Shown piece by piece: positions 28,679 through 43,481 of a stretch of DNA of 64,000 bases (positions are counted from its first letter, which is position 1; every line of letters starts with the position of its first letter). Origin of the DNA: Herpetosiphon aurantiacus DSM 785 (lineage in GTDB: Bacteria > Chloroflexota > Chloroflexia > Chloroflexales > Herpetosiphonaceae); NCBI GenBank assembly GCA_000018565.1, contig CP000875.1:377199-441198 (forward strand), read 5' to 3'. The translations under genes were made by a program, and so were the position numbers. Below the pieces are notes generated by a model, which saw only the letters and a list, made by a program, of their open reading frames with translations, was not told where the DNA came from and ran no database searches.

Positions 28679-29683
28679 ATGCCAATCACAATTGAACATG
28701 TTCGCGTTTTAGAAGGCCCAAATATCTATTACCCTCAGGCTGGGGTCGCTGCAAGCTTGCAAGTTAGCCACGATCTGCGCGATGAACTTGGTCGTCAGCT
28801 CAAAACTTGGGCGCAGGCAGTTGGCTTAATCATTGGCTATCTGCGCATGAAAATCGAGCCGATTGACGACCAATGGCTATTAAGCCTGAGTTTTACCTGC
28901 AATCATCCCCAACTTGGTGCGGCTATCTTGCAGCATGCGGTCGAAGATATACTGGCCGGCGAACGCCAAGACGAAGATTGGAACCACGACGATGCCTTGT
29001 TTGATCTGCGTCGTCAGCGCATGCGGATTGATCCGGTGTTGCCGTTGTTGCAATTACGGGCCGAAGCTCAAGGGCGGGTTCTGCCTGTGATCGCGGTTGG
29101 TGATGGCATGCTCCAAATCGGCACCGGCAGTGGTGGTTGGCAGTTTGATCCGGCGCAGCTAAGCCTTGGCTTTGCGATCAACCCGCCATGGGAGCAAATT
29201 CGTAGCGTGCCTTTGATTGCGATTGGTGGGGTTGGGGCTGAAATTGCCGCAGCCCAGATTGCCCAAGGATTAACTGCGGCTGGTTGGCAACAGGTTATGC
29301 ATATTGTTAAGGGCGATTTTGCTAGCGTGCGCCAAGCATTTCTCCAGCCCAAGGCTGAAATCTTTGTGATTGCTTTGGATCATAGCGATGCTGTCGAGCG
29401 TGGTTTAGCCTTTAATCGCTGCACGATGGGGGTGGTACTTGGCATTAGCGATTTGCCTGAAACTCAGGCTTTGGCGGCGGGGTTGCCAGCCCTAACTGCC
29501 GATGAACTAGGCAATACCATTTTGCTGGCCGATGATCAACGGACTGCTGGCTTGGCGCGACGCACCGCAGCCCCAGTTGTGCAACTACAACGTACCCACG
29601 AACCAGCCAGTATTCAACAACCCTTATTAGCGTTGGTGGTCAATCAATTGCAACAATTGCTCGACGCTGGAGCATTTGATTAA
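28679..29683 (+). CDS. Hypothetical protein
   Basis: 334 aa with no motif I can assign. The N-terminus 'VRVLEGPNIYYP' faintly recalls the N-terminal region of cyanophycin-synthetase/ATP-grasp-like proteins, but no P-loop is present. Confidence 0.55.
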   Translation: MPITIEHVRVLEGPNIYYPQAGVAASLQVSHDLRDELGRQLKTWAQAVGLIIGYLRMKIEPIDDQWLLSLSFTCNHPQLGAAILQHAVEDILAGERQDEDWNHDDALFDLRRQRMRIDPVLPLLQLRAEAQGRVLPVIAVGDGMLQIGTGSGGWQFDPAQLSLGFAINPPWEQIRSVPLIAIGGVGAEIAAAQIAQGLTAAGWQQVMHIVKGDFASVRQAFLQPKAEIFVIALDHSDAVERGLAFNRCTMGVVLGISDLPETQALAAGLPALTADELGNTILLADDQRTAGLARRTAAPVVQLQRTHEPASIQQPLLALVVNQLQQLLDAGAFD

Positions 29684-29722: not shown

Positions 29723-30076
29723 ATGCCAAAGATTACCGTCGGTTCGCAAGCTGCGTTTGAGGTTGCTAGTGGCACACGCTTAGTCAATGCTCTTGAAGAT
29801 CATGGTGTGGATATTTTACATCGCTGTGGCGGCAATGCCCGTTGCACAACCTGTCGAGTTGAGTTTCAGACTGGCGAACCCCAAGCGATCACCAAGGCTG
29901 AATCGTTTAAATTGGCCGAGGCCAAGCTCACTGGGGTGCGTTTGGCATGCCAAATTCTCTGCGAACACGATATGCAGCTTCAACCTTTACAAACCTTGAG
30001 CGCATCGGGCTTGCCCGACCCTGGGCCACGCCCGTCCGATGAACTCACCCCAGCCCCTGAATGGCTGAATCGTTAA
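29723..30076 (+). CDS. 2Fe-2S ferredoxin-like protein
   Basis: Perfect AGGAGG RBS. Cys pattern 'CGGNARCTTCRV...LACQ' matches the plant-type [2Fe-2S] binding motif. Confidence 0.75.
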   Translation: MPKITVGSQAAFEVASGTRLVNALEDHGVDILHRCGGNARCTTCRVEFQTGEPQAITKAESFKLAEAKLTGVRLACQILCEHDMQLQPLQTLSASGLPDPGPRPSDELTPAPEWLNR

Positions 30077-30134
30077 TTGAAGCCAATTGCACCAAGGATC
30101 TCCATGCTGAGATGCTTGGTTGAATAGGAATCCG

Positions 30135-31025
30135 ATGAACTTTCCGTTGCTGCGCGAATTTGGCTCAACTGGTTTGCAGGTTTCAGCGCTAGGCTTTGGC
30201 GCTGGCCATATTGGTGGAAACGAATTAACTGAAGCTGAAGCAGCCAAGTTGCTGCATGGCTTGCTCGATTTAGGGATTAACTTAATTGATACAGCACGCG
30301 GCTATGGCCTTTCCGAAGAGCGGATCGGGCGACATCTCCAGCAACGTCGTCATGAGTTTGTGCTTTCAACCAAAATTGGCTATGGCATCGAGGGCTACGA
30401 CGATTGGACCAGCCCAATCATCACTGCCGGAATTGATGCAGCGCTGCAACGCATGCACACCGATTATTTGGATATTGTGCATTTTCATTCTTGCCCGGTC
30501 GAGACCTTACGAGCAGGCGAGGTGATTGAGGCACTTGAGCGGGCGGTTCAAGCAGGTAAAGTACGGGTTGCCGCCTATTCTGGCGATAATGCACCCTTAG
30601 CTTGGGCGGTGCAGTCAGGCCATTTTGGTGCGATTGAATGCTCGGTGAACCTCGCCGATCAACGGGTGATCAGCCAAGTATTGCCCCAAACCCAACAACG
30701 CCAAATTGGTGTAATTGCCAAACGCCCAGTGGCCAACGTCGCGTGGCGTTTTGCCCAACGGCCAGTTGGCGATTATGCTGAAGTGTATTGGGAACGACTC
30801 CAAGCCATGCAGCTTGATTTCGACCCTGAACGACTTTTGGATATTGCCTTGCGGTTTACCGCCTATACCCCAGGTGTCCATAGCTGTATTGTTGGTTCGC
30901 GCAGCCTCGAACATATGCAGCATAATTTAGCATTATTGCAACAAGGCCCACTTGAACCCCAACTCTATGCCTATCTCTCCAGCCAATTTCAGACGAACGA
31001 TCAAGGTTGGGTTGGTCAGATCTAA
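30135..31025 (+). CDS. Aldo/keto reductase
   Basis: 'IDTARGYG' and 'KIGY' AKR motifs, TIM-barrel-length protein. The ORF-track start 30120 is TTG; the ATG at 30135 is preferred. Confidence 0.8.
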   Translation: MNFPLLREFGSTGLQVSALGFGAGHIGGNELTEAEAAKLLHGLLDLGINLIDTARGYGLSEERIGRHLQQRRHEFVLSTKIGYGIEGYDDWTSPIITAGIDAALQRMHTDYLDIVHFHSCPVETLRAGEVIEALERAVQAGKVRVAAYSGDNAPLAWAVQSGHFGAIECSVNLADQRVISQVLPQTQQRQIGVIAKRPVANVAWRFAQRPVGDYAEVYWERLQAMQLDFDPERLLDIALRFTAYTPGVHSCIVGSRSLEHMQHNLALLQQGPLEPQLYAYLSSQFQTNDQGWVGQI

Positions 31026-31257
31026 GCCATCAGCAAGCATCATGCATGGTGGTGCTTGCTACTCTAGCAGTAGAAACGGGACTTTTCGACTATAGCTTGG
31101 TGTTGGCAAAGCTGCCACAATAAGCTTGAGAGTAGACGACCATTTCAAATCCACAGTTCAGTGTTTGGGGAATTTGCCCTGATGTTGCTTGCAGTTGCAA
31201 CTTTGGCCTGTTTCGGGTACAACAGCAACCAGTTAATCAACAATCAAGGACAACATC

Positions 31258-31869
31258 ATGGGCAAATTAATTACTATTGTGGGCAACGCTGGCATTGGCA
31301 AAACCACCCTCACCAAGCTACTCTGCCGTGATCAGCGTTTTTTCGCAGCCTTAGAGAGCCACGTCGAACGACCATTCCAACAACTATTTGCCCAAAATCT
31401 GCAACGCTATGCCTTAGCCAACCAATTCGATTACCTCTTACTCCGTGCTGAACAAGAGCGATTCATTCGGGCGCAATCTGGTATTGGAGTCCAAGATGGC
31501 GGCCTTGATGAAGATTTTTGGGTTTTTACCCAGCATTTTCAGCATCAAGGCTATTTGAGTGCTGCCGAGTTTGAGTTATGCCAACGTCTATATACTGAAT
31601 TGCGAGCTGGGCTTGGTCAGCCCGATTTGATCATCAAGCTCGATGCCCCCTTGGATGTGATTATTCAGCGTTACGAGCAGCGCAATCGCCCATTGGAAAT
31701 AGCGCAGCGCGACGATTTAGCCCAACTTGGCACATTGCTTGATCGCTGGACTGCGACCATTACCACCCCTTTGCTCAGCCTCGATTGGAGCAGCAGCGCT
31801 TTACCGACGATTGAACAGCAACAACAACTCATTGAGACTATTCTAAAACAGCTCCGTATAGTACACTAA
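31258..31869 (+). CDS. P-loop NTPase, deoxynucleoside-kinase-like
   Basis: 'ITIVGNAGIGKTTL' Walker A at the N-terminus. 203 aa with lid-like Arg-rich region 'RYEQRNRPLE'. Confidence 0.55.
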   Translation: MGKLITIVGNAGIGKTTLTKLLCRDQRFFAALESHVERPFQQLFAQNLQRYALANQFDYLLLRAEQERFIRAQSGIGVQDGGLDEDFWVFTQHFQHQGYLSAAEFELCQRLYTELRAGLGQPDLIIKLDAPLDVIIQRYEQRNRPLEIAQRDDLAQLGTLLDRWTATITTPLLSLDWSSSALPTIEQQQQLIETILKQLRIVH

Positions 31870-31908: not shown

Positions 31909-34101
31909 ATGCGATTACGGATTGGTTTAATCATCACGCTTTTGTTGATGATCACCGTTGGAAAAACCCTGCAAAACCCCAGGGATGTAGCCCAAGCCCT
32001 GTCCCAAACCCCTGATCAAACCACAATTCCGCAAGGATTTTCCCGCATCCAAGAGCAAGAATTTAACGACTTACCACTCAATGCCAATCTGTTGGTTGGC
32101 AGCAGTTTGGTGGTGCGCGGCTCAATTCAGCAAACTGATGTTGATTATTTTGCGCTTGATTTAACCGCTGGTCAGCGTTTAGCAATGGCCACCATTACTA
32201 GCGCCAGCGTCGCCTCCAGCGATACAACCATCCATCTCTATGCTTTCGATGGCGTAAATAGTGATCTGATCGAAACCGATTTGAGCGATGGCATTCTGAG
32301 CAACAGTTCCTCGGTGATCAGTTCTCAGCCAATTACGCTGACCGGAACCTACCTGATTAAAGTTGAAGGTGGCACTGCAACCACGGTTATTCAGCCCTAC
32401 GACTTATATGTGCGAGTGCTGAGCGAAACTGCCAGCGAACAAGAACCTAACGACGAAGTTGCCCAAACCATCGATGCTCAAGCGGCAATCAGCGGGGTAG
32501 TTTCAACCACCAACGATCTTGATCGCTATCAATTTAATGTTAATCCTGGCGACACAATTTTTGCCACCGTTGATTTTGATCCAGAGCGTGATGGCATAAC
32601 TTGGAATGGCTTTCTCGATATTGGCATGATCAACAATACCTATCTTCGGGCTAACGATAGTAATAGTGTTTCACCCAACGCTGAAGCCAATGTGATCACC
32701 GTTCAACAAGCTGGCACTTACGAAATTCGCATTGGCTCACTACTTGAGATCGGTGTGGATGCTAGTTATTTGGCGCAAGTTACGATTATTCCCGCCGCTA
32801 TTCAGGCCAACTGCCAAACCGTGATGAGTTCAGGTGCACCACAGAATATTGGCCCACAAGCTGGAATAATTCAATCGACATTAACCGTCACCCAAGCAGC
32901 CAACATTGCCGATATTGATGTATTGCTCAATTTAGAGCATAGCTTCATGCCCGATTTGGATGTAACCCTGACTGCCCCCGATGGTAATGTGATTAACCTC
33001 TTCACCGATATTGGCAATGTGCAGCAACCTACCGTTAATCTCGTGATTGATCAACAAGCTGCCTTACCACTTGGCACGTATAACGTTTTGAGTGGCACGC
33101 ATTTTGGTCCGAAATGGAATAGCAGCCTCGATTGGTTGGCTGGACAACAAGCCCAAGGCCAATGGATACTGACGATTTATGATGATACCGACCAAAATGC
33201 TGGTGTATTAAATGGTTGGGGCTTGCGGATTTGTGGCATGCCCACGCCAAGCGATTGTCCAGTCGGGATGTCGCGCAGCGTGCTTTATAGCAGCCAATTT
33301 GAGGCCGATAATGGCGGGCTTACTCCAGGCCCATTTGACCAAGAATGGGTTTGGGGTAATCGTAATAGCCCACCAATTGTTGGTGCGTATAGCGGCGAAA
33401 ATAGCTGGAATACCAATTTAACCGGAAATTATCCTAATAGTACCCGCATGCAATTGCTATCACCGCAAATTGACTTAACCAATGTTACGGGGCCAATTTA
33501 TGCAAGTTGGTATCAACGCTATCAGCTTGATAATAGTGTTAACGATTTTTATCAGGTAACGGCCCATAAGCCCCAAGTTGAACAGATTCTCTTTCGCCAT
33601 CAAAGTGCTGCAATGCAAATTAACCTCGGAAATCCTTTGGTTACGCTTGATCAAAGTACAGGTTGGGGACTTCAACGCCATGATCTAAGCGATTTTGCTG
33701 GCACTTCACTCTATTTAACCTGGGATTTCGGTAGTGATGAGGTAGCAAGTTTTGCTGGGATTGCGCTTGATGATGTGGAAATTACTGGTTGTATTGATCC
33801 AGCTCAAATCACGCCAACGAATACGCCAACGCCAAGCAACACGCCAACCCTAACATCAACTCCTAGCAATACGCCAACGCCAAGCAATACGCCAACGGCG
33901 ACCGCAACACCAACCCAAACCTTAACGCCAACTGAAACGCCAACGCCAAGCAATACGCCAACGGCGACCGCAACGCCGACCCAGACCGAAACGCCAACCG
34001 CGACTGAAACACCAAGTATCACCCCAACGAGTACACCAAGTGTAACGGCAGATCCAAGCTTAATCCCGGTCTATCTGCCTTTAGTCAGTAAAGATAATTA
34101 A
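31909..34101 (+). CDS. Secreted multidomain protein: signal peptide - PPC - PPC - proprotein-convertase P-domain - MAM-like domain - PT-linker - conserved C-terminal tail (paralog 1 of 5)
   Basis: GGAGG RBS. PPC signatures 'EQEPNDE..A..I.A...ISGV....D.DRYQFNV..GDT'. P-domain '[29 protein letters not shown]...W.L.I.DD...AG.L..W.L.IC'. MAM-like '[12 protein letters not shown]'. Linker [13 protein letters not shown].... Tail '[12 protein letters not shown]'. No peptidase catalytic domain. Confidence 0.8.
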
Positions 34102-34242
34102 ACCAATTGCGCCAGTCTGGGGATGCCTAGGCTGGCGCAATGCCCCTAAATTCACCCTTGCAATTGGTTAAAAAGTAGCCTATCCTAACTCAATCCCACC
34201 TTCATTATTGCCCCAGCAAAAGCCTTGTTTTAGGAGGTTTGC

Positions 34243-36393
34243 ATGCGTCTACGGATTGGGTTTATCGGCCTCATGATCGCTTTACTTGGGTTAACTGGTA
34301 GTTTACGGGCTTTCAAGCCAGTTCAAGCTGCCCCAAGTAATCCAACTACCGCTCAAATTGCTCAAGCGAATGTCCCGCAGGGGGCAGTCCGCGTTAAAGA
34401 ACAGGAAAGCAACAATACGACTGCCACCGCCAACGCGATCATGTCCAGCAGTACCCTAATTCGCGGGAATATCTGGAATGGTGATGTTGACTTCTATAGC
34501 ATTGAATTAGCCGCTGGCGATCGCCTGACCGCTGCAACCATGAGCGCGGCTTCAGCCTCTGGCAACAACGATACGGTATTAACCTTTTTTGCGCCTGATG
34601 GTACAACCGTGATTGAAACCGATGATAACGATGGCTCACTTGGCGGCAATGCCTCGGTGATTAGTTCGGCTCCGGTGACCCAAACCGCTACCTACTATCT
34701 GCGGTTAAGTAGTACTAGTACCAACCAAGTTCGCTACTACGACTTCTATGTGCGGGTGTTGAGCGAAGCCGCCACTGCTGAAACAGAGCCAAATGATCTT
34801 TTGACAACCGCCCAAGTGTTGCCTACCAGCGGCACAATTTCGGGGGTCTTATCGGCTACAACCGACCTCGATTACTACCAGCTTAACTTGAATGCTGGTG
34901 ATACGATCTTTACCAGCCTCGACCTCAACCCTGAGCGCGATGGCATTGTTTGGAACGGACGACTTGGGATCGGCGCGTTTAATGGCTTTACTTTAGTTGT
35001 TGATGATACCAGTGTAGTCTCACCAAATGCTGAAGCCCATTTTATGACCGTCAAGACGAGTGGTACCTACTATGTGCTGGCCTCAACGACGGCTGCAAGT
35101 ATTCCGGCTGAAGCAACCTATTTGTTGGGTGTCACAGTGTTCCCTGCCGAGCAGCAAGCCAATTGTACAACCTACACCAGCGCTGATGTTGCCAAGACCA
35201 TCCCAACGACTACCAGCTTTATTACCTCAACCTTGACTGTTCCCGACAACTTTATCATCGCTGATCTTGATGTCAGTATCGAACTGACTCATACCAATAT
35301 GCCCGACCTCGATGTTCAACTCCAAGGGCCAGATGGCAATGTTGGAGGGCTATTTACCGATATTAGCAATAATACCCAGACCACGATGAATATCGATCTT
35401 GATGATGAAGCCGCAATTCCAATTGGACTTTTCGCGATTGTCTCGGGCATCCGTTATATTCCAGAGTTGAATTATCGCCTCGATTGGTTCGATGGTGGGC
35501 GATCGGCTGGCACCTGGACTCTCTTGATTCACGATGATACTGCTGCCAACGGTGGAACATTGCAAAATTGGAGCATCACGCTGTGTGCCGCGCCACCAGC
35601 AAGCTGCCCCGATGGTATGAGCATGAGCACAATCACGAGCACTGATTTTGAAGCCAATGATGGTGGCTTTACCCATAGCGGAACTGCTGATTCATGGGAA
35701 TATGGCGCACCAAGCGCTGCTCCATTGATCGGTAGCTATAGTGGGGCTAATAGCTGGAAGACCAACCTTGACGGAACTTATTCGGTCAGTAGTATTGCCA
35801 ATCTCTTCTCGCCATCAATTAGTATTCCCAATGTGACTGGCCCTGTCTACATCCAATGGCAACAACGCTACCAGATGGAAAGTGCTAATTTTGATCATTA
35901 CACGGCCTCGGTTGGTACAGGCGTTGTGACCAAAACCTTGTATGAATTTGATGCAGCAACCATGACCAATGCAGTTGGTAACCCAAGCGTAACCTTCCAA
36001 GAAAGCACAGTTTGGAGTCGCCAGCTCTACGATATTAGCGAGTTCAAGGGTCAATCAATCCAGGCCTTGTATCACCTAGATACTGATAGTTCGGTTCAAT
36101 TGGGTGGTATCGCGATCGACGATTTCCAAATTATGGCCTGTGACGGTGTGGCAGCAACCGCGACCCCAACCGAAGCACCAACCGCTACCAGCACACCAAC
36201 CAACACGCCAACTAACACACCAACCAACACGCCAACTAACACGCCAACCAATACACCGATTATCACGATTACCCCAAGCAATACGCCGACGGCTACGGTT
36301 ACCCCAAGTAACACGCCAACCGTTACCCCAAGCGTGACCGCTGGGCCAACCATGATTCCGGTTTATATGCCATTAGTCGGTAAAGACCAATAG
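34243..36393 (+). CDS. Paralog 2 of the secreted PPC-PPC-P-domain-MAM-like-PT-linker family
   Basis: Same architecture as paralog 1. Signal peptide '[23 protein letters not shown]'. Tail '[12 protein letters not shown]'. Confidence 0.8.
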
Positions 36394-36547
36394 ATCAGCC
36401 CTTGCCTAATAATGCAGCCCGTGGCTTAACCACGGGCTGTACTCGTTAACAGCACCAAACTGCCCCTTGTGTTTGCTCACCCTATAGCCTACGCTAACTC
36501 AAGCCCCGCTCATCGCTTCGATAAAACCTTGATTGTAGGAGGTTCGT

Positions 36548-38629
36548 ATGCGTTTACGGATTGGGTTTATCGGTCTTATGATCGCCCTGCTCGGATTAAC
36601 GGGCGGCTTGCGTAGTTTAACCAGCGTTCAAGCAGTACCCAACGCCCCTCAAAATCTCGCAGCCCACCAACTTAATACTCCTCAAGGATTTGCGCGGATT
36701 AGCGAACAAGAATCAAACGATACTCCTGCCATGGCCCAGCCAATCATTGGCGATTCAGCCGTCATTCGCGGCTATATCACTGCCAATGATAGCGATTTCT
36801 TGGCAATTCCACTTACTAGCGTCCAACGGGTGGTCGCAGCAACTATGACCTCGGCTTCAGCCACAAATATTGTCGATTCGATCCTGACTCTCTATCAACC
36901 TGATGGGACAACTGTCTTGGAGCTTGATAATGACGATGGGATTTTTGGCGTGAGTTCTTCGGTTATCAGCTCAGCGATTATCACGACTACTGCAACCTAC
37001 TATCTCAAGGTCACCGCCAACAATACGACGAATAAAATTTATTATTACGATTTATATGTACGGATTTTAACCAGCGAACCAATTGTCGAACAAGAGCCAA
37101 ATGAGCCAGCTCAAATGCTGCCAGCAGCTGGGATTGTCAGTGGGATTATTAGCCAAACTGGCGATATTGATCGTTTTCAGCTGGCCTTGAATCCAGGCGA
37201 TACGTTGTTTACAACCCTCGATATAGACCCCGAACGTGATGGCATTAGCTGGAATGGGCGGGTAACGATCGGGCCATTTGGGCCAAATATCATCACAATC
37301 AACGATGGCAATGCGGTTTCGCCCAATGCCGAATCGGCCCAATTAACCGTTAAAGAAGCTGGTAATTATATAATCAGCGTCGATAACCTATCAGCAATTA
37401 ATAATTCGACCTACATCCTACAAGTGCTGATCATCCCAGCCGAAGAGCAAGCCAATTGTCAGACCTATATGAGCACCGATGTCAATAAAACAATTCCACC
37501 TGATCCTGGTATGATCACGTCGGGATTAAATATTCCTGACAATCTCTTGATTGGCGATTTAGACTTGATTATTCAGCTTGATCATACCTTTATACCTGAT
37601 CTCGATGCGCAATTGACTACGCCTGATGGGAATATCCTTGGGCTATTCAGCGATATTGGAATCACGACTAGTGCCCCAGCGAGCATGAACCTGATTATTG
37701 ATGATGAAGCAGCCTTACCATCATTTCAAGCGCTTAGCGTCAATGGATTGATCAACTTGCCTGAGGCAGCCTATCGGATGAGTTGGTTTGATGGCCAACG
37801 TACCCAAGGCAATTGGACATTAACGCTCTATGATGATGCAACTGGCGATGGGGGCACATTACTCAATTGGGGCTTGCAGGTTTGCGCTGCGCTGCCACCC
37901 GCCGATTGTCCTGATGGCACGGTTAGCAGCACCATCTACAGCACCGATTTTGAAGCAAATGATGGGGGCTTTACCCATAGCGGAACCACTGATCCATGGC
38001 AATATGGTCAACCAAACTCAGCGCCAATTGTGGGCAGTTATAGTGGGAGCAATAGTTGGAAAACCAATTTAACTGGCAATTATCCCGCTTTAATGAATGC
38101 CAACCTAACGTCGCCGGCCATTGATCTTAGCGGTGTAGTTGGGCCAATTCAGGTGCAATGGCAACAACGCTATCAAATCGAATCAGCAGCATTTGATAAT
38201 TATGCAGCACAGATTGTTGGTAGTAGCAACCAAGTACTCTTTCAGCATCGCGATGGCGTAATGCGTGAATCAGTTGGCAATCCGCTGGTTACGGTTCAAG
38301 CAAGCACTGGTTGGAGCCGCCAACTGCATGATATTAGTAGCTTTGTGGGTCAGTCGATTCAACTGCAATTCCATATGGATACTGATTCCAGCGTTGAACT
38401 GGCGGGTGTCGCCATTGATGATGTGCTGGTAACTGGTTGTGTTGTGCTCCCTACGGCCACCCCAACCGAAACGCCAACTAACACACCGACCAATACCCCC
38501 ACCGAAACCCCAACCAATACGCCGACGGTTACGGTTACGCCAAGTAATACACCAATCGTTACCCCAAGCGTGACGGCTGGGCCAACGACGATTCCAGTTT
38601 ATCTGCCGTTGGTTAGTAAAGGCGAATAA
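36548..38629 (+). CDS. Paralog 3 of the secreted PPC-PPC-P-domain-MAM-like-PT-linker family
   Basis: Same architecture. Tail '[12 protein letters not shown]'. The leader 36394-36547 is nearly identical to 38630-38784. Confidence 0.8.
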   Translation: MRLRIGFIGLMIALLGLTGGLRSLTSVQAVPNAPQNLAAHQLNTPQGFARISEQESNDTPAMAQPIIGDSAVIRGYITANDSDFLAIPLTSVQRVVAATMTSASATNIVDSILTLYQPDGTTVLELDNDDGIFGVSSSVISSAIITTTATYYLKVTANNTTNKIYYYDLYVRILTSEPIVEQEPNEPAQMLPAAGIVSGIISQTGDIDRFQLALNPGDTLFTTLDIDPERDGISWNGRVTIGPFGPNIITINDGNAVSPNAESAQLTVKEAGNYIISVDNLSAINNSTYILQVLIIPAEEQANCQTYMSTDVNKTIPPDPGMITSGLNIPDNLLIGDLDLIIQLDHTFIPDLDAQLTTPDGNILGLFSDIGITTSAPASMNLIIDDEAALPSFQALSVNGLINLPEAAYRMSWFDGQRTQGNWTLTLYDDATGDGGTLLNWGLQVCAALPPADCPDGTVSSTIYSTDFEANDGGFTHSGTTDPWQYGQPNSAPIVGSYSGSNSWKTNLTGNYPALMNANLTSPAIDLSGVVGPIQVQWQQRYQIESAAFDNYAAQIVGSSNQVLFQHRDGVMRESVGNPLVTVQASTGWSRQLHDISSFVGQSIQLQFHMDTDSSVELAGVAIDDVLVTGCVVLPTATPTETPTNTPTNTPTETPTNTPTVTVTPSNTPIVTPSVTAGPTTIPVYLPLVSKGE

Positions 38630-38784
38630 ATGTATCGCGTCGCTAAAATCGCAGCCCGTGGTTAATCCACGGGCTGCCCGTATTAACAGCACTAAACTCA
38701 CCCTTGTATTTGGATGTTGTCGCGCCTATGCTAGCCCAATCCCCGCTCATTGCTTCGATAAAACCTTGATTGTAGGAGGCTTGT

Positions 38785-40912
38785 ATGCGTTTCAGGATTG
38801 GGTTTATCGGCCTTATGCTTGTCGTACTTGGGTTAACTGGTAGTTTGCGGGCTTTCAAGCCAGTTCAAGCCGCCCTCAGTAATCCAAATACCTCACGAAT
38901 TGTTCAAACGCATGTGCCGCAAGGTGCAGCTCGGATCAATGAACAAGAAAGTAATAATACACTTGCAACGGCTAACCCGATCATGGCGAGTAGGGCGATC
39001 ATTCGTGGGATTATCTGGAGTGGTGATGTTGATATGTATCGGATTGAATTAGCAGCAGGCGACCGATTGAATGTCGCGACCATGACTTCCGCTGCAACCC
39101 ATAGCAGCACTGACACCGTACTAAGCCTGTATGCACTCGATGGAACAAGCCTCATTGAATTAGACGATGACGATGGAACATTTGGTAGTCTTTCATCAGT
39201 CATTAGCTCAGTTCCGGTCACCATAACAGGTACATATTATATTCGTATCAATGCGTTCTTGGCTACCGCCCAAGTTCGTTACTACGATTTGTATGTACGC
39301 ATCTTTAGCGAAGCCACCACTGCTGAGCAAGAACCAAATGATGTTGTTGGCACAGCCCAAGTGTTGCCAGCCAGCGGCGCTGTTGAAGGTAGTTTATCCG
39401 CCACGACTGATGTTGATCTGTTTAAATGCTGGCGATACGATTTTTACGAGTATCGACTTTAACCCTGAACGTGATAGCACAAATTGGAATGGAAGCCTCG
39501 GTATTGGACTATTTAACGGTCTTATTTTATTCGCTGATGATAACAGTACTTCGGCTCCGCCGAATGCTGAGGCTCATTTTATGACCGTTAAAAATAGTGG
39601 AACCTATTATGTTGTTGTTTCAACAAGTGCGAGCAGTATTCCGGCTGAGGCAACCTATCTATTAAATGTTACGACCTTTCCTGCCGAGCAACAAGCGAAC
39701 TGCACAACCTACACCAGCACCGATGTTGCCAAAACGATTCCAACCACCACCAGTTTTATCACCTCAACTTTGAGCGTTCCAGATAACTTTATCATTGCCG
39801 ATCTTGATCTAAGCATTCAATTGACCCATAACAACATGCCCGACCTCGATGTCCAGTTGCAAGGGCCAGATGGTAATGTTGGTGGGCTATTTACCGATAT
39901 TGGATCAAATCTTGTGACGATGATGGATCTTGACCTTGATGATGAAACAGGGATCACGATTAACAGCTTTGCGGCTGTAGCTGGGATGAAGTATATTCCT
40001 GAATCTGTCTATCGCCTCAATTGGTTTGACGGTGGTCGCTCAGCCGGCACTTGGACGCTGTTGATTCACGATGATCTCGCTAGCAATGGTGGTACACTCC
40101 AAAACTGGAGTATTACGCTGTGTGCCGCCCCTCCCGCGAGCTGCCCCGATGGTATGAGCATGAGCACAATCACGAGCACCGATTTTGAGGACAATAATGG
40201 TGGTTTTACTCACAACGGAACCGGCGATACATGGGAGTATGGTGCACCAATCGCCGAACCACTGATCGGCAGTTACAGCGGGGTTAATAGTTGGAAAACT
40301 AATTTGGATGGAACCTATAGTGCTAGCAGTGTTGCCGATCTCTTCTCACCATCAATCAGTATTCCGAATGTGGCTGGCCCAGTCTATTTGCAATGGCACC
40401 AACGCTATCAGATGGATACGGCTGGATCTGATCGCTATAGCGCATCAATTGGTGCTGGGGCTGTGACCAAAACCCTGTATGAGTTTGAGTCAGCCGTAAT
40501 GACCAATCCAGTTGGCAATCCAAGCGTGACCTTCCAAGAAAGCACAGTTTGGAGTCGTCAGTTACACGAAATTAGCGAGTTCAAGGGTCAATCGGTTCGG
40601 GTTCAATATCACCTTGATAGTAATGCTACAACGAATTTGGGTGGCGTTGCAATCGACGATTTTCAAATTATGACATGTGATGAGGTGATCGCAACCCCAA
40701 CCAACACCCCAACTGCAACTCCAACCAACACCCCAACTGCAACTCCAACCGCAACCCCAACCGCAACCCCAACCGCAACCCCAACCAACACCCCAACCAA
40801 TACGCCAACGGTTACGGTTACGCCAAGTAATACGCCAACCGTTACCCCAAACGTGACGGCTGGGCCAACGACGATTCCGGTCTATCTGCCACTAGTCGTT
40901 AGAGGCGAATAG
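38785..40912 (+). pseudogene. Paralog 4/5 of the same family, disrupted by a +1 frameshift in an A-run (39424-39426); the two ORF fragments are 38785-39462 and 39251-40912
   Basis: N-terminal and C-terminal parts align to the other paralogs in different frames. Removing one A from 'tttaaatgct' restores '...[23 protein letters not shown]...'. Tail '[12 protein letters not shown]'. Confidence 0.65.
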
Positions 40913-40933
40913 GCTTCATCATTGGTTACCCAA

Positions 40934-40972
40934 ATAGCCCATGGTCAATCCACGGGCTATTTTTTTTGCCTA
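40934..40972 (+). terminator. Rho-independent terminator ending the paralog array; hairpin core conserved at 36415-36439 and 38652-38677
   Basis: gcccatggtcaatccacgggc followed by a T8 run. Earlier copies (cagcccgtgg-cttaa-ccacgggctg) lack a T-run. Confidence 0.6.
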
Positions 40973-41142
40973 CCCATAAACCTATGAAGATTTGATGGAG
41001 TATAAGCTAAACCCTGAATGAGCAAAAGCGGCATTTGACTTGGATTTTCTAAACCACCATTTAGCCTGCATTAGCCTGCTTTTTAGCTAAACATTGCTAC
41101 AATACAAGCAGCAAAACAAGCTCTCTGCAACCAGGAGTCGTT

Positions 41143-42249
41143 ATGAGTAATCCCAAACGTACCGTCGGCATCGGCGGATTGATTATTGCCGCCCTCGCAC
41201 TTTCAGGGGTTGGTGGTGGTTTAGTCGGTGGTGTCGCAGGCTATCGCTTAGCCCAAGTTGATCAAACGGCAACGGCAGTGGCGGTCACGCCAACCAGCGC
41301 CACCCAACAAACGACCGATAATCTGACTGCGCAACCAGTTGTTGCCAGCACGAATGATGCAGTTGTCCAAACCGTTGCCAAGGCCTCACCAGCAGTCGTA
41401 AAAATTATTAGTACGGTGGTTGGCGGTCAGGCCAGCGGTTCAGGCGCAATTATCAATGAAGATGGCTATATCATCACCAATAATCATGTGGTCGAAGGTC
41501 AAAGTCGCTTGCAAGTAATTTATTCTGATGGAACCAGCCACAATGCCGAGTTGATCGGCACTGATGCTTTTTCGGATATCGCCGTGATTCGGGTGCTCGA
41601 TGCCGTGCCAGCCACAATTTCCTTAGGCGATTCGGATAGTTTGCAGCCTGGCGAAACGGTCGTGGCCATTGGCAGTCCGCTTGGTAAATTCCAAAATAGT
41701 GTGACGGTTGGAGTGGTCAGCGCTCTTGACCGCACAATTGATAGCATGGAAGGCCTAATTCAAACTGACGCAGCGATTAACCATGGCAATAGTGGCGGCC
41801 CACTGATCAACCTCAAAGGCGAAATTGTTGGGATCAATACGTTGGTTGTGCGCGGTGATATTGGTAGTATCGATGAAGCTCAAGGCCTAGGTTTTGCTGT
41901 CCCATCAAATATTGTGCGCGAAGTCAGCGATGCTTTGATTGCCAATGGCCAAGTTATTCGACCATATATAGGCATTCGCTACGAATTGCTTTCGCCCGAA
42001 ACCGCCGAACTGGGGATTGCCAATGATAAAGGTGCTTTCGTGACCAATGTTGATGAAGGTACACCTGCTCGGCGAGCTGGCATTAGCCGTGGCGATATTA
42101 TTCTCGCAGTCAACGGCGAAGAAATTACTCAACGCCACTCATTGCAGCGCCTGCTGTTGCAATATAAACCAGGCGATACCGTAACGGTCACAATCGAGCG
42201 TAATGACCAACAACAGGAAGTGCAAATTACCCTCGCTGAACGCCCATAA
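41143..42249 (+). CDS. htrA: HtrA/DegP-family trypsin-like serine protease with C-terminal PDZ domain
   Basis: N-terminal TM anchor. Catalytic His region 'ITNNHVV', Asp 'DIAVIRV', Ser 'GNSGGPL'. PDZ-like 'GAFVTNVDEGTPARRAGISRGDIILAVNGEEI'. Confidence 0.9.
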   Translation: MSNPKRTVGIGGLIIAALALSGVGGGLVGGVAGYRLAQVDQTATAVAVTPTSATQQTTDNLTAQPVVASTNDAVVQTVAKASPAVVKIISTVVGGQASGSGAIINEDGYIITNNHVVEGQSRLQVIYSDGTSHNAELIGTDAFSDIAVIRVLDAVPATISLGDSDSLQPGETVVAIGSPLGKFQNSVTVGVVSALDRTIDSMEGLIQTDAAINHGNSGGPLINLKGEIVGINTLVVRGDIGSIDEAQGLGFAVPSNIVREVSDALIANGQVIRPYIGIRYELLSPETAELGIANDKGAFVTNVDEGTPARRAGISRGDIILAVNGEEITQRHSLQRLLLQYKPGDTVTVTIERNDQQQEVQITLAERP

Positions 42250-42379
42250 TCGCCTAATAAACCCAGCTCGCTTCAAGCCCTTCGTTCCCAAAACGAGGGG
42301 CTTTTTGGTTGTGGCACGCTGCTTGCCCTTTACACAGCGTTTAGAATACAAACGAAACTTAGCCTGAAGGAGTGTTGAA

Positions 42380-42766
42380 ATGCGTCGTTGGTTTTTAGCT
42401 CTGTGTCTTTTGGTGGTGCTGGCGGGCTGCTCAGGCAGCAGTATCGCCACCCAAGTCTCGGATACAGTCCAACAATTAAGTGAAACCTCAGTGCAAGATT
42501 TGGTTGATCGTTTGTCGGGGATCGAAGAGGCGGTACGTAACAACGATTGGGAGCAAACCCGTGCTTTATTTAGCACAGTTGAAAATGGCTGGAATGCGCT
42601 ACGCGTGCCAGTTGAAGCCGCCTTTCCCGAGATTGCCAGCAATATTCAAGCTCAAATCGATCAACTGAGCCAAGCCTTGAGCGTTGAACTCCCAAGCTCT
42701 GAAGACGTTCGAGCAGGCTTATCCAATTTGCGCGATCAATTAGTGGCTTTATTGCAAGCACTTTAG
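42380..42766 (+). CDS. Small lipoprotein, unknown function
   Basis: GAAGGAG RBS. Lipobox 'LAGCSG'. 128 aa, helical. Confidence 0.5.
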   Translation: MRRWFLALCLLVVLAGCSGSSIATQVSDTVQQLSETSVQDLVDRLSGIEEAVRNNDWEQTRALFSTVENGWNALRVPVEAAFPEIASNIQAQIDQLSQALSVELPSSEDVRAGLSNLRDQLVALLQAL

Positions 42767-42821
42767 AGCTACTTTTTGCTGTAAATTGTGGTATGCTTTT
42801 TGAGGTTTCCAACGTAGAGGA

Positions 42822-43481
42822 ATGTGTGTGGGTGAATTTCAGCAGGCCTTGGAGTATGCGCTTGAGCCGCGCAATTTGGCGCGATTAAGTGCCGCGCTCA
42901 ATCGCCATGGGCAGCTTGTTGCTAGCGCGATGGCGATTGCGCTGCTACTAGGCTTGCCCTTTGGCTGGTGGAGCAGCCGCTCACGCCTGATTAGCGCCAT
43001 TGCGATCAATACCACCAATGGGCTGCGGGTCATTCCCAGCCTTGCCATCCTCTTTTTGTTTGTCGCAATCCCAGGCTTTGGCTTGAGTATTCGTTCGGCA
43101 ATTATTGCCCTAACAATCTTGGCTTTGCCACCAATTTTGATCAATACCAATACGGCTTTTCGCACGCTCAACCCAGCTGTGCGCGAAGCCGCCAAGGCCA
43201 TGGGTATGCCAGCATGGCTCCAACTATGGCGGGTCGAGTTGCCTTTAGCTGCGCCTGTCATTCTTTCGGGCATCCGCATCGCTTTGGTTGAGGTGATTGC
43301 CAGCGCCACCTTGGCTGCCTTTATTGGAGCTGGCGGGCTAGGCAGTTTTATCACTTTAGGATTTAGTATGAGCCGCGTCGATATTTTGCTTGTTGGCGCT
43401 ATTCCGGTGGCTTTGCTCGCAATTCTGGCCGAAATCGTCATGGCCGGGCTGTTGCGATGGGTGCAACCACCACAGTTTTAA
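42822..43481 (+). CDS. ABC transporter permease (glycine betaine/choline OpuCB/OpuBB-like)
   Basis: BPD_transp_1-like EAA loop region 'EAAKAMGMPAWLQLWRVELPLAAP'. About 6 TM. Confidence 0.8.
   Translation: MCVGEFQQALEYALEPRNLARLSAALNRHGQLVASAMAIALLLGLPFGWWSSRSRLISAIAINTTNGLRVIPSLAILFLFVAIPGFGLSIRSAIIALTILALPPILINTNTAFRTLNPAVREAAKAMGMPAWLQLWRVELPLAAPVILSGIRIALVEVIASATLAAFIGAGGLGSFITLGFSMSRVDILLVGAIPVALLAILAEIVMAGLLRWVQPPQF

Follow-up and report, generated by a model that had tools for sequence, protein, structure and literature searches.

The proteins considered here are encoded by a tandem array of four genes, c1 to c4, in Herpetosiphon aurantiacus DSM 785. The array lies in a stretch of 64,000 nucleotides (contig CP000875.1, positions 377,199 to 441,198; hereafter the window, whose numbering is used throughout). 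The closest described counterparts of these proteins are domains of peptidases. ColG of Hathewaya histolytica ends in two tandem collagen-binding domains, s3a and s3b (PDB 5IKU; the ColH domain is 3JQW). The array proteins have a similar pair of pre-peptidase C-terminal (PPC) domains without an M9 module or PKD domain, but the pair is N-terminal, and sequence identity is only 13-19%. P-domains of the kexin/furin type (furin, 4OMC; Aeromonas sobria ASP, 3HJR) follow an S8 catalytic domain, and in convertases they pack on the protease and stabilise it. The P-domain of the array proteins has no such domain before it, and is predicted to pack on the PPC and MAM-like domains instead. The MAM-like domain resembles MAM and InhA-like MAM domains (meprin beta, 4GWM; SR-C MAM, 8YT7; Bacillus InhA2, 4YU5), but is not joined to an M6 or M12 peptidase. 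Finally, the array proteins share with the "choice-of-anchor" proteins of NCBIfam the combination of one conserved N-terminal core with the sorting signal of the host phylum. However, their core is not among the named choice-of-anchor domains: choice_anch_J (NF038128) was matched by c1 only, with 14.8 bits (E 0.025) against a cut-off of 30. Whereas classical sorting signals have a transmembrane helix and a basic cluster, the C-terminal tail of the array proteins, a YLP-box, has neither.

The array proteins combine a signal peptide, two PPC domains, a P-domain, a MAM-like domain, a Pro/Thr linker and the YLP-box tail, and contain no catalytic domain. With a probability of roughly 0.6, we read them as Ca2+-stabilised, surface-displayed, non-catalytic binding proteins of the choice-of-anchor type, sorted or retained by the YLP-box, whose paralogs have diverged in specificity.

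Domain architecture and predicted structure

Each copy matches the Pfam families PPC (PF04151), P_proprotein (PF01483) and InhA-like_MAM (PF20773), and a scan of the four copies at E<=0.1 revealed no further domain and no peptidase domain. The scores are mostly above the gathering cut-offs (25.9, 21 and 26.9 bits, respectively), the exceptions being PPC in c3 and MAM in c1 and c4. In c1 they are 35.5 bits for PPC, 40.8 for P_proprotein and 22.9 for InhA-like_MAM; the last family scores 30.5 in c2, 31.1 in c3 and 15.8 in c4. Membership in PF04151 and PF01483 is clear. The canonical MAM family (PF00629) was not matched at E<=0.1; in structure comparison the fold of the MAM-like domain agrees with MAM domains. 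It terminates in G[IV]A[IL]DDxx[IV] and is followed by the Pro/Thr linker and the conserved tail, as had been noted from the sequence. The NCBIfam scan of the copies gave only sub-threshold domain matches, and no catalytic domain of the S8 subtilase, M9 collagenase or M6 InhA type was found.

The AlphaFold2 model of c2, built with 53 homologs, has a mean predicted local distance difference test score (pLDDT) of 84, with the core above 90, and a predicted template modelling score of 0.80. It is all-beta except for the helix of the signal peptide; the Pro/Thr linker and the tail are disordered. A search of the PDB with the family sequence profile matched ColG, the P-domain of Aeromonas ASP and InhA, whereas the PPC pair, searched against the PDB as a single sequence, gave no match. 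The predicted order of domains and the absence of a catalytic domain were thus borne out by Pfam, with which the structure and profile searches agree on the identity of the domains; Pfam, NCBIfam, the c2 model and the structure searches all failed to reveal an enzyme. According to the model, there should be no room for a hidden peptidase.

The family motif ExEpNd...DvDyYsF aligns in the profile alignment to the Ca2+-binding linker region of ColG s3a/s3b, where we presume the residue roles known from the published ColG structures. The proteins have both the Ca2+-site motif of the s3b type (E-x-E-x-N-D ... D-x-D) and the PPC fold, and positions E53, N57, D83, E180, E182, N184 and D210 do not vary among 53 sequences. 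The likeness of the modelled PPC pair to collagen-binding domains appears to be structural. Four cysteines flanking the P and MAM-like domains are invariant in the 53 homologs, and from their positions at the domain boundaries we infer two stapling disulfides, one at each domain. Such bonds would be consistent with an extracytoplasmic protein.

Family breadth and C-terminal signals

The best matches of c2 are Herpetosiphon proteins with 68-74% identity (the top one 74% in the protein search and 70% in the genome scan). Beyond this genus, hundreds of proteins are 43-53% identical over more than 80% of its length. Hundreds of proteins align with the core of about 590 amino acids in a single stretch (40-53% identity), in most cases at their N-terminal end. 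The hosts include Chloroflexota, Acidobacteriota, Lysobacterales and other Gammaproteobacteria, Polyangiaceae, Planctomycetota, Bacteroidota and Actinomycetota, about seven phyla. Scanning GTDB species representatives, one genome per species, yielded 278 relatives, and phmmer, run exhaustively against 1.84 billion representatives, yielded at least 366 clusters at 50% identity (E<=1e-30); among the best 150 of its matches, most cover the core of about 590 residues as one stretch, usually at the N-terminus. The extensions after the core differ (DUF11, HYR, PKD, CARDB, FG-GAP and others). A peptidase domain is absent from the Pfam lists of the 120 best homologs and from five homologs with additional N-terminal regions.

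The extreme C-terminus tracks the host phylum. Homologs from Spirosomataceae have a T9SS type A domain (25.4 bits, cut-off 23), and those from Polyangiaceae a MYXO-CTERM signal (33.4 bits, cut-off 20). Acidobacteriota and Gammaproteobacteria have signals of the IPTL-CTERM type (PF18203, PGAP names), Chloroflexota have the YLP-box, and one homolog carries SLH domains. The Planctomycetaceae proteins end in dockerin-like sequences of the GC type, with 24.5 bits against the cut-off of 29 of the corresponding NCBIfam model; both members at locus L060 (303-2318 and 3777-5867) end in tandem ...NSNDISAFLTAWLD...NGC repeats. This variation is the choice-of-anchor pattern of surface proteins. The extracytoplasmic or surface location that had been predicted is supported.

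The combination had also been suggested to be undescribed as a family. Indeed, we found no dedicated model or paper, and literature searches for choice-of-anchor proteins in Chloroflexota and for the PPC-PPC-P-MAM architecture in Herpetosiphon returned nothing relevant. However, the architecture is common and the tail is already represented in NCBIfam. The family is widespread rather than rare, uncharacterised, and annotated by domain name (in PGAP, for instance, as "proprotein convertase P-domain-containing protein").

The conserved tail of the array proteins, IPVY[LM]PLVxKxx, was scanned alone against the two NCBIfam models with the description "YLP-box putative sorting motif-containing protein", NF053834 (ultrashort_CTERM, cut-off 10 bits) and NF050076 (sort_motif_YLP, cut-off 15 bits). 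The former recognises c1 (13.8 bits), c3 (13.9) and c4 (13.1), and the latter c4 (15.3). The motif lies three residues from the C-terminus in all four copies. None of the classical tripartite signals (LPXTG, PEP-CTERM, IPTL-CTERM, MYXO-CTERM) was found in the array proteins, which end three residues past the LPLV core and have no hydrophobic segment there.

In the fetched loci, tails of the YLP-box type end 16 of the 24 Chloroflexota family members with a readable C-terminus. Counting all stop-terminated open frames of at least 100 codons, they end 27 of 1476 frames in Chloroflexota (window included) versus 2 of 3357 in the loci of other phyla. An unrelated Thermoflexales protein of 1478 amino acids adjoins a family member (L014:4648-9084, minus strand); it has no Pfam domain and ends in GGRLYLPL[VM]LR(S). 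A piece of 151 amino acids at a contig end (L006:3624-4079, minus strand) has the same C-terminal sequence. The YLP-box is therefore not specific to the family. We found no paper on the motif in the literature.

Another ending was seen in two family members from Acidobacteria/Holophagales metagenome-assembled genomes (MAGs), L008:9842-11872 and L040:9758-11803, which have PVEL[AQI]GFSV[ED] at the extreme C-terminus without a transmembrane segment. An open reading frame (ORF) of 279 amino acids that clusters with the family (L040:16900-17739) ends in the same way. No NCBIfam model matches these endings, and they may be another ultrashort C-terminal motif.

Possible role of the array proteins

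The following scheme can be suggested. Each protein would be exported by its Sec signal peptide and would form, outside the cell, a rigid unit of four beta-sandwiches: two PPC domains of the collagenase type with the Ca2+ motif ExExN(D)...DxD retained, the P-domain, and a jelly roll of the MAM-like type. In the P-domain and in the jelly roll alike, a disulfide probably acts as a staple. The disordered Pro/Thr stalk would keep this head away from the cell. The YLP-box tail, as the putative Chloroflexota counterpart of the sorting signals of other phyla, would retain or sort the protein, and the head would bind a putative polymer or protein ligand. The diverged paralogs, each with a promoter and a hairpin of its own, probably offer different specificities.

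Several observations weigh against this scheme. The MAM-like domain of c1 and c4 is under the Pfam cut-off. The tail of c2 (YMPLV) and those of the orthologs of c1 (HLPLV) have no score against the NCBIfam YLP-box models. The YLP-box itself is only a putative sorting motif; we know of no sorting enzyme for it, and it has no transmembrane segment, hence surface retention, as opposed to release, is only putative. Finally, beta-sandwich domains can carry unexpected activities that are beyond the reach of fold searches.

One possibility, which we consider unlikely, is that the array proteins are structural, S-layer-like components of the envelope or sheath, that is, plentiful constituents of the filament surface and not adhesins that bind a ligand. 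Filaments of Herpetosiphon have been described as those of sheathed monoderms, although it is debated whether there is a true sheath at all (PMC6210107, PMC3368417). Such a role would agree with the SLH domains of one homolog, the Pro/Thr-rich and probably glycosylated linkers, and the separate promoter-like region and hairpin of each copy. Protein c3 weakly matches the model of the anammox S-layer glycoprotein (E 5e-4), but its 17.5 bits are far under the cut-off of 1400. Moreover, diderm phyla have this core as well, with anchors of the T9SS, exosortase or myxosortase type, and in them a sheath role is unlikely.

It is still less likely that the proteins are released and act as helpers in predation, the head binding polymers of the prey or substrate and recruiting or potentiating separate secreted hydrolases in trans, much as accessory domains do for collagenases and subtilases. 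Indeed, collagenases, subtilases and InhA are directed to their substrates by domains of these kinds. The family is frequent in Herpetosiphon, Lysobacterales and Polyangiaceae, which are predatory or lytic groups, and Herpetosiphon is a "wolf pack" predator relying on secreted hydrolases. However, cell-anchoring signals are present in nearly all complete homologs, a point in favour of retention. The link to predation is anecdotal, many hosts being Anaerolineae and Acidobacteriota from sludge and soil. In addition, all-against-all clustering of ORFs in 76 family loci, fetched with flanks of up to 10 kb on each side, revealed no conserved neighbour, hydrolases included. Two large clusters of ORFs not belonging to the family appear antisense inside the family gene; the representative that was checked falls within the match.

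A more ambitious version of the proposed scheme, in which the core is a discrete, as yet unnamed surface module shared across phyla that recognises a specific ligand in cell-cell or prey contact and is attached in Chloroflexota by the YLP-box, with the adjacent HtrA as processing enzyme of the box, we regard as a long shot.

The gene htrA does begin 230 bp after c4, as the original prediction stated. Its product belongs to the HtrA/DegP (S1C) family, with Pfam matches to Trypsin_2 (6.8e-30, 105 bits) and PDZ_2 (6.1e-22, 78 bits). It scores 308.7 bits against the 416 required by TIGR02037 and does not reach NCBIfam equivalog cut-offs; it is thus an HtrA-family member with a single PDZ domain, of a subtype not assignable from the NCBIfam equivalogs. 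The word "periplasmic" used for it was loose, given that Herpetosiphon is a monoderm (PMC6210107, PMC3368417). The protein carries an N-terminal membrane anchor. The gene is 92-93% identical to, and syntenic with, htrA of other Herpetosiphon species. In four named species and one Chloroflexia MAG the order is the same: aldo-keto reductase, deoxynucleoside kinase, array, htrA, lipoprotein, opu transporter.

In HtrA proteases such as DegS and DegP, the PDZ domains bind C-terminal peptides. Accordingly, one might think that HtrA recognises or processes the YLP tail, or that the array proteins are its dedicated substrates or regulators, the more so as the position of htrA is kept in five genomes of the Herpetosiphon type. 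Such coupling is very improbable. A homolog of HtrA (E<=1e-5, more than 100 amino acids) was detected beside the family in 5 of the 76 loci, all of them syntenic and of the Herpetosiphon type, and was not detected in the fetched flanks of the other 71, including Chloroflexota loci with YLP-box members. Between c4 and htrA there is a terminator with a T-run, the last residues of the tails are charged whereas typical PDZ ligands have a hydrophobic C-terminus, and the entire neighbourhood from the aldo-keto reductase to opu is simply syntenic. Because HtrA is confined to these five loci, no other neighbour is conserved and the terminator intervenes, we treat the adjacency as genus-level synteny and not as a system. 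We therefore rejected a functional linkage.

Least probable of all is an unrecognised catalytic site in the core: it would explain the identity of 45-50% across about seven phyla, unusually high for accessory-type domains, and there are an invariant histidine (H350) and many invariant Asp and Glu residues, but the full length is explained by four binding-type beta-sandwich domains with pLDDT above 90, every structural neighbour is a non-catalytic module, and the invariant acidic residues coincide with the known Ca2+-site motif of collagenase collagen-binding domains.

If the array proteins are indeed surface-displayed binding proteins, the locus is a clean example of a conserved enzyme-free module of four domains that occurs in about seven phyla, in each with its own anchoring pathway. 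They are natural substrates for studying the YLP-box of Chloroflexota, a putative ultrashort C-terminal sorting motif, and Herpetosiphon, a cultivable predatory monoderm, is suited to testing both the core module and the motif. The tandem array, the pseudogene and the htrA neighbour represent ordinary genome evolution, and the main value of the locus is the handle that it gives on the core module and the YLP-box.

Organisation and history of the array

The ORFs starting at 31909, 34243, 36548 and 38785/39251 are paralogous and lie head to tail on the plus strand, as predicted (Table 1). They had been counted as five genes. However, the last two ORFs overlap, the first matching the N-terminal part of the other copies and the second their C-terminal part, and the alignment of c2 and c4 DNA contains a single deletion of 11 bp in c4, at about 39416/39417, which shifts the frame and splits them. 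The array therefore consists of four genes, three intact and the fourth broken. When the frame is restored by padding the deletion, c4 has 712 amino acids, is free of stops and is 75% identical to c2. The deletion is probably real, since its site is not in a homopolymer, and c4 is a probable recent pseudogene.

Table 1. Array genes, domains of c2, spacers and htrA (window positions)
Feature	Positions	Strand	Description
c1	31909..34101	+	ORF of 730 aa, lineage A; signal peptide, PPC, PPC, P-domain, MAM-like, long Pro/Thr linker, YLP-box tail at 34063-34098
c1-c2 spacer	34102..34242	+	hairpin 34106-34141; promoter-like conserved block ~34152-34191; Shine-Dalgarno AGGAGG 34232-34237
c2	34243..36393	+	ORF of 716 aa, lineage B
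c2 signal peptide	34243-34332	+	residues 1-30
c2 PPC1	34393-34767	+	residues 51-175
c2 PPC2	34768-35151	+	residues 176-303
c2 P-domain	35152-35592	+	residues 304-450
c2 MAM-like domain	35593-36150	+	residues 451-636
c2 Pro/Thr linker	36151-36342	+	residues 637-700
c2 tail	36343-36390	+	residues 701-716
c2-c3 spacer	36394..36547	+	hairpin 36413-36441 (stem GCAGCCCGTGG...CCACGGGCTG); conserved promoter-like block; AGGAGG
c3	36548..38629	+	ORF of 693 aa, lineage C; architecture as in c1/c2, shortest linker; tail at 38591-38626
c3-c4 spacer	38630..38784	+	hairpin 38651-38677, homologous to post-c2 hairpin; conserved promoter-like block; AGGAGG
c4	38785..40912	+	lineage B, frameshifted; ORFs 38785-39462 and 39251-40912; tail at 40874-40909
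c4-htrA spacer	40913..41142	+	homologous hairpin 40932-40962, then T8 run; then htrA upstream region
htrA	41143..42249	+	membrane-anchored S1C (HtrA/DegS-like) serine protease, one PDZ domain

Leaders and terminator hairpins had been predicted to be duplicated with the genes, and there is indeed a stable hairpin after each copy, and a promoter-like block with AGGAGG before c2, c3 and c4. The folding energies of the hairpins are -30.5 kcal/mol after c1 (z -5.4), -23.2 after c2 (z -6.4), -24.6 after c3 (z -5.9) and -16.5 after c4. Only the last of them is a canonical intrinsic terminator. A scan with the terminator consensus missed the hairpins between the copies, which have no T-run or a mismatched stem, and they were revealed by folding. 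The promoter-like block of the c1-c2 spacer can be aligned with the c2-c3 and c3-c4 spacers and with the equivalent spacer of H. giganteus, and the c4-htrA spacer aligns with the spacer between copy B and htrA of that species. These hairpins and leaders reflect the duplicated unit and selection rather than youth.

The suggestion that the duplication is recent was rejected by protein identities, the tree and synonymous divergence (dS). Protein c1 is 45-47% identical to the others, c3 is 54-57% identical to c2 or c4, and even the closest pair, c2 and c4, reaches only 75%. The DNA identity of this pair is also 75%, and its dS is about 1.0; dS of orthologs of the window genome and H. giganteus, htrA included, is 0.8-1.3. 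Since the former value is as large as the latter, the duplications are old. For c2 and c3, dS is 2.2, which is saturated, so the ratio of nonsynonymous to synonymous divergence (dN/dS) is not interpretable.

Three lineages are seen in the neighbour-joining tree. Lineage A consists of c1 and its orthologs (100% bootstrap), and lineage B of c2 and c4 together with the second copy from each of the four named Herpetosiphon species. Lineage C unites c3 not with c2 or c4 but with the second copy of the Chloroflexia MAG MFD03066 (locus L042), again with 100% bootstrap. The three lineages predate species splits. In L042:7800-12932 frameshifts interrupt the two family copies as well as the kinase gene; they are probably indels of a long-read assembly rather than signs of true pseudogenes.

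The predicted local expansion is supported: the syntenic locus has two copies in each of the four named Herpetosiphon species and in the Chloroflexia MAG, versus four in the window. In this lineage specifically, the array has expanded from two copies to four, one of which is now broken. Tandem pairs of family genes also occur in six loci of other lineages, one of them in another Chloroflexota genome.

Orthologs of c1 occupy the same position in the four Herpetosiphon species with 68-69% identity. Overall, the array proteins are 68-70% identical to their Herpetosiphon orthologs, versus 84-95% for the proteins of the flanking genes (30120-31869 and 41143-43481). Between the window genome and H. 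giganteus, dN of the array orthologs is 0.17-0.24 and dN/dS 0.13-0.19, while dN of htrA is 0.04. Thus the array orthologs evolve faster than their neighbours, yet under purifying selection. As dN/dS of c2 and c4 is 0.14-0.22, c4 was under purifying selection as well over most of its history, and the overall range of 0.13-0.22 indicates that the array genes are functional.

Upstream of the array, the gene at 28679-29683 (plus strand) encodes a DUF4938 protein of 334 amino acids (Pfam 1.3e-37), and its position is conserved in other Herpetosiphon loci. It precedes an ORF of 117 amino acids (29723-30076), the aldo-keto reductase and the deoxynucleoside kinase.

Long antisense ORFs face the array genes at 35350-35676, 36096-36353 and 38270-38701 (minus strand). 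One of them is GV-rich and lies opposite the ACN-CCN stretch encoding the Pro/Thr linker, and similar intragenic antisense ORFs recur in GC-rich homolog loci. The antisense ORFs facing the array result from sequence composition and are not genes.

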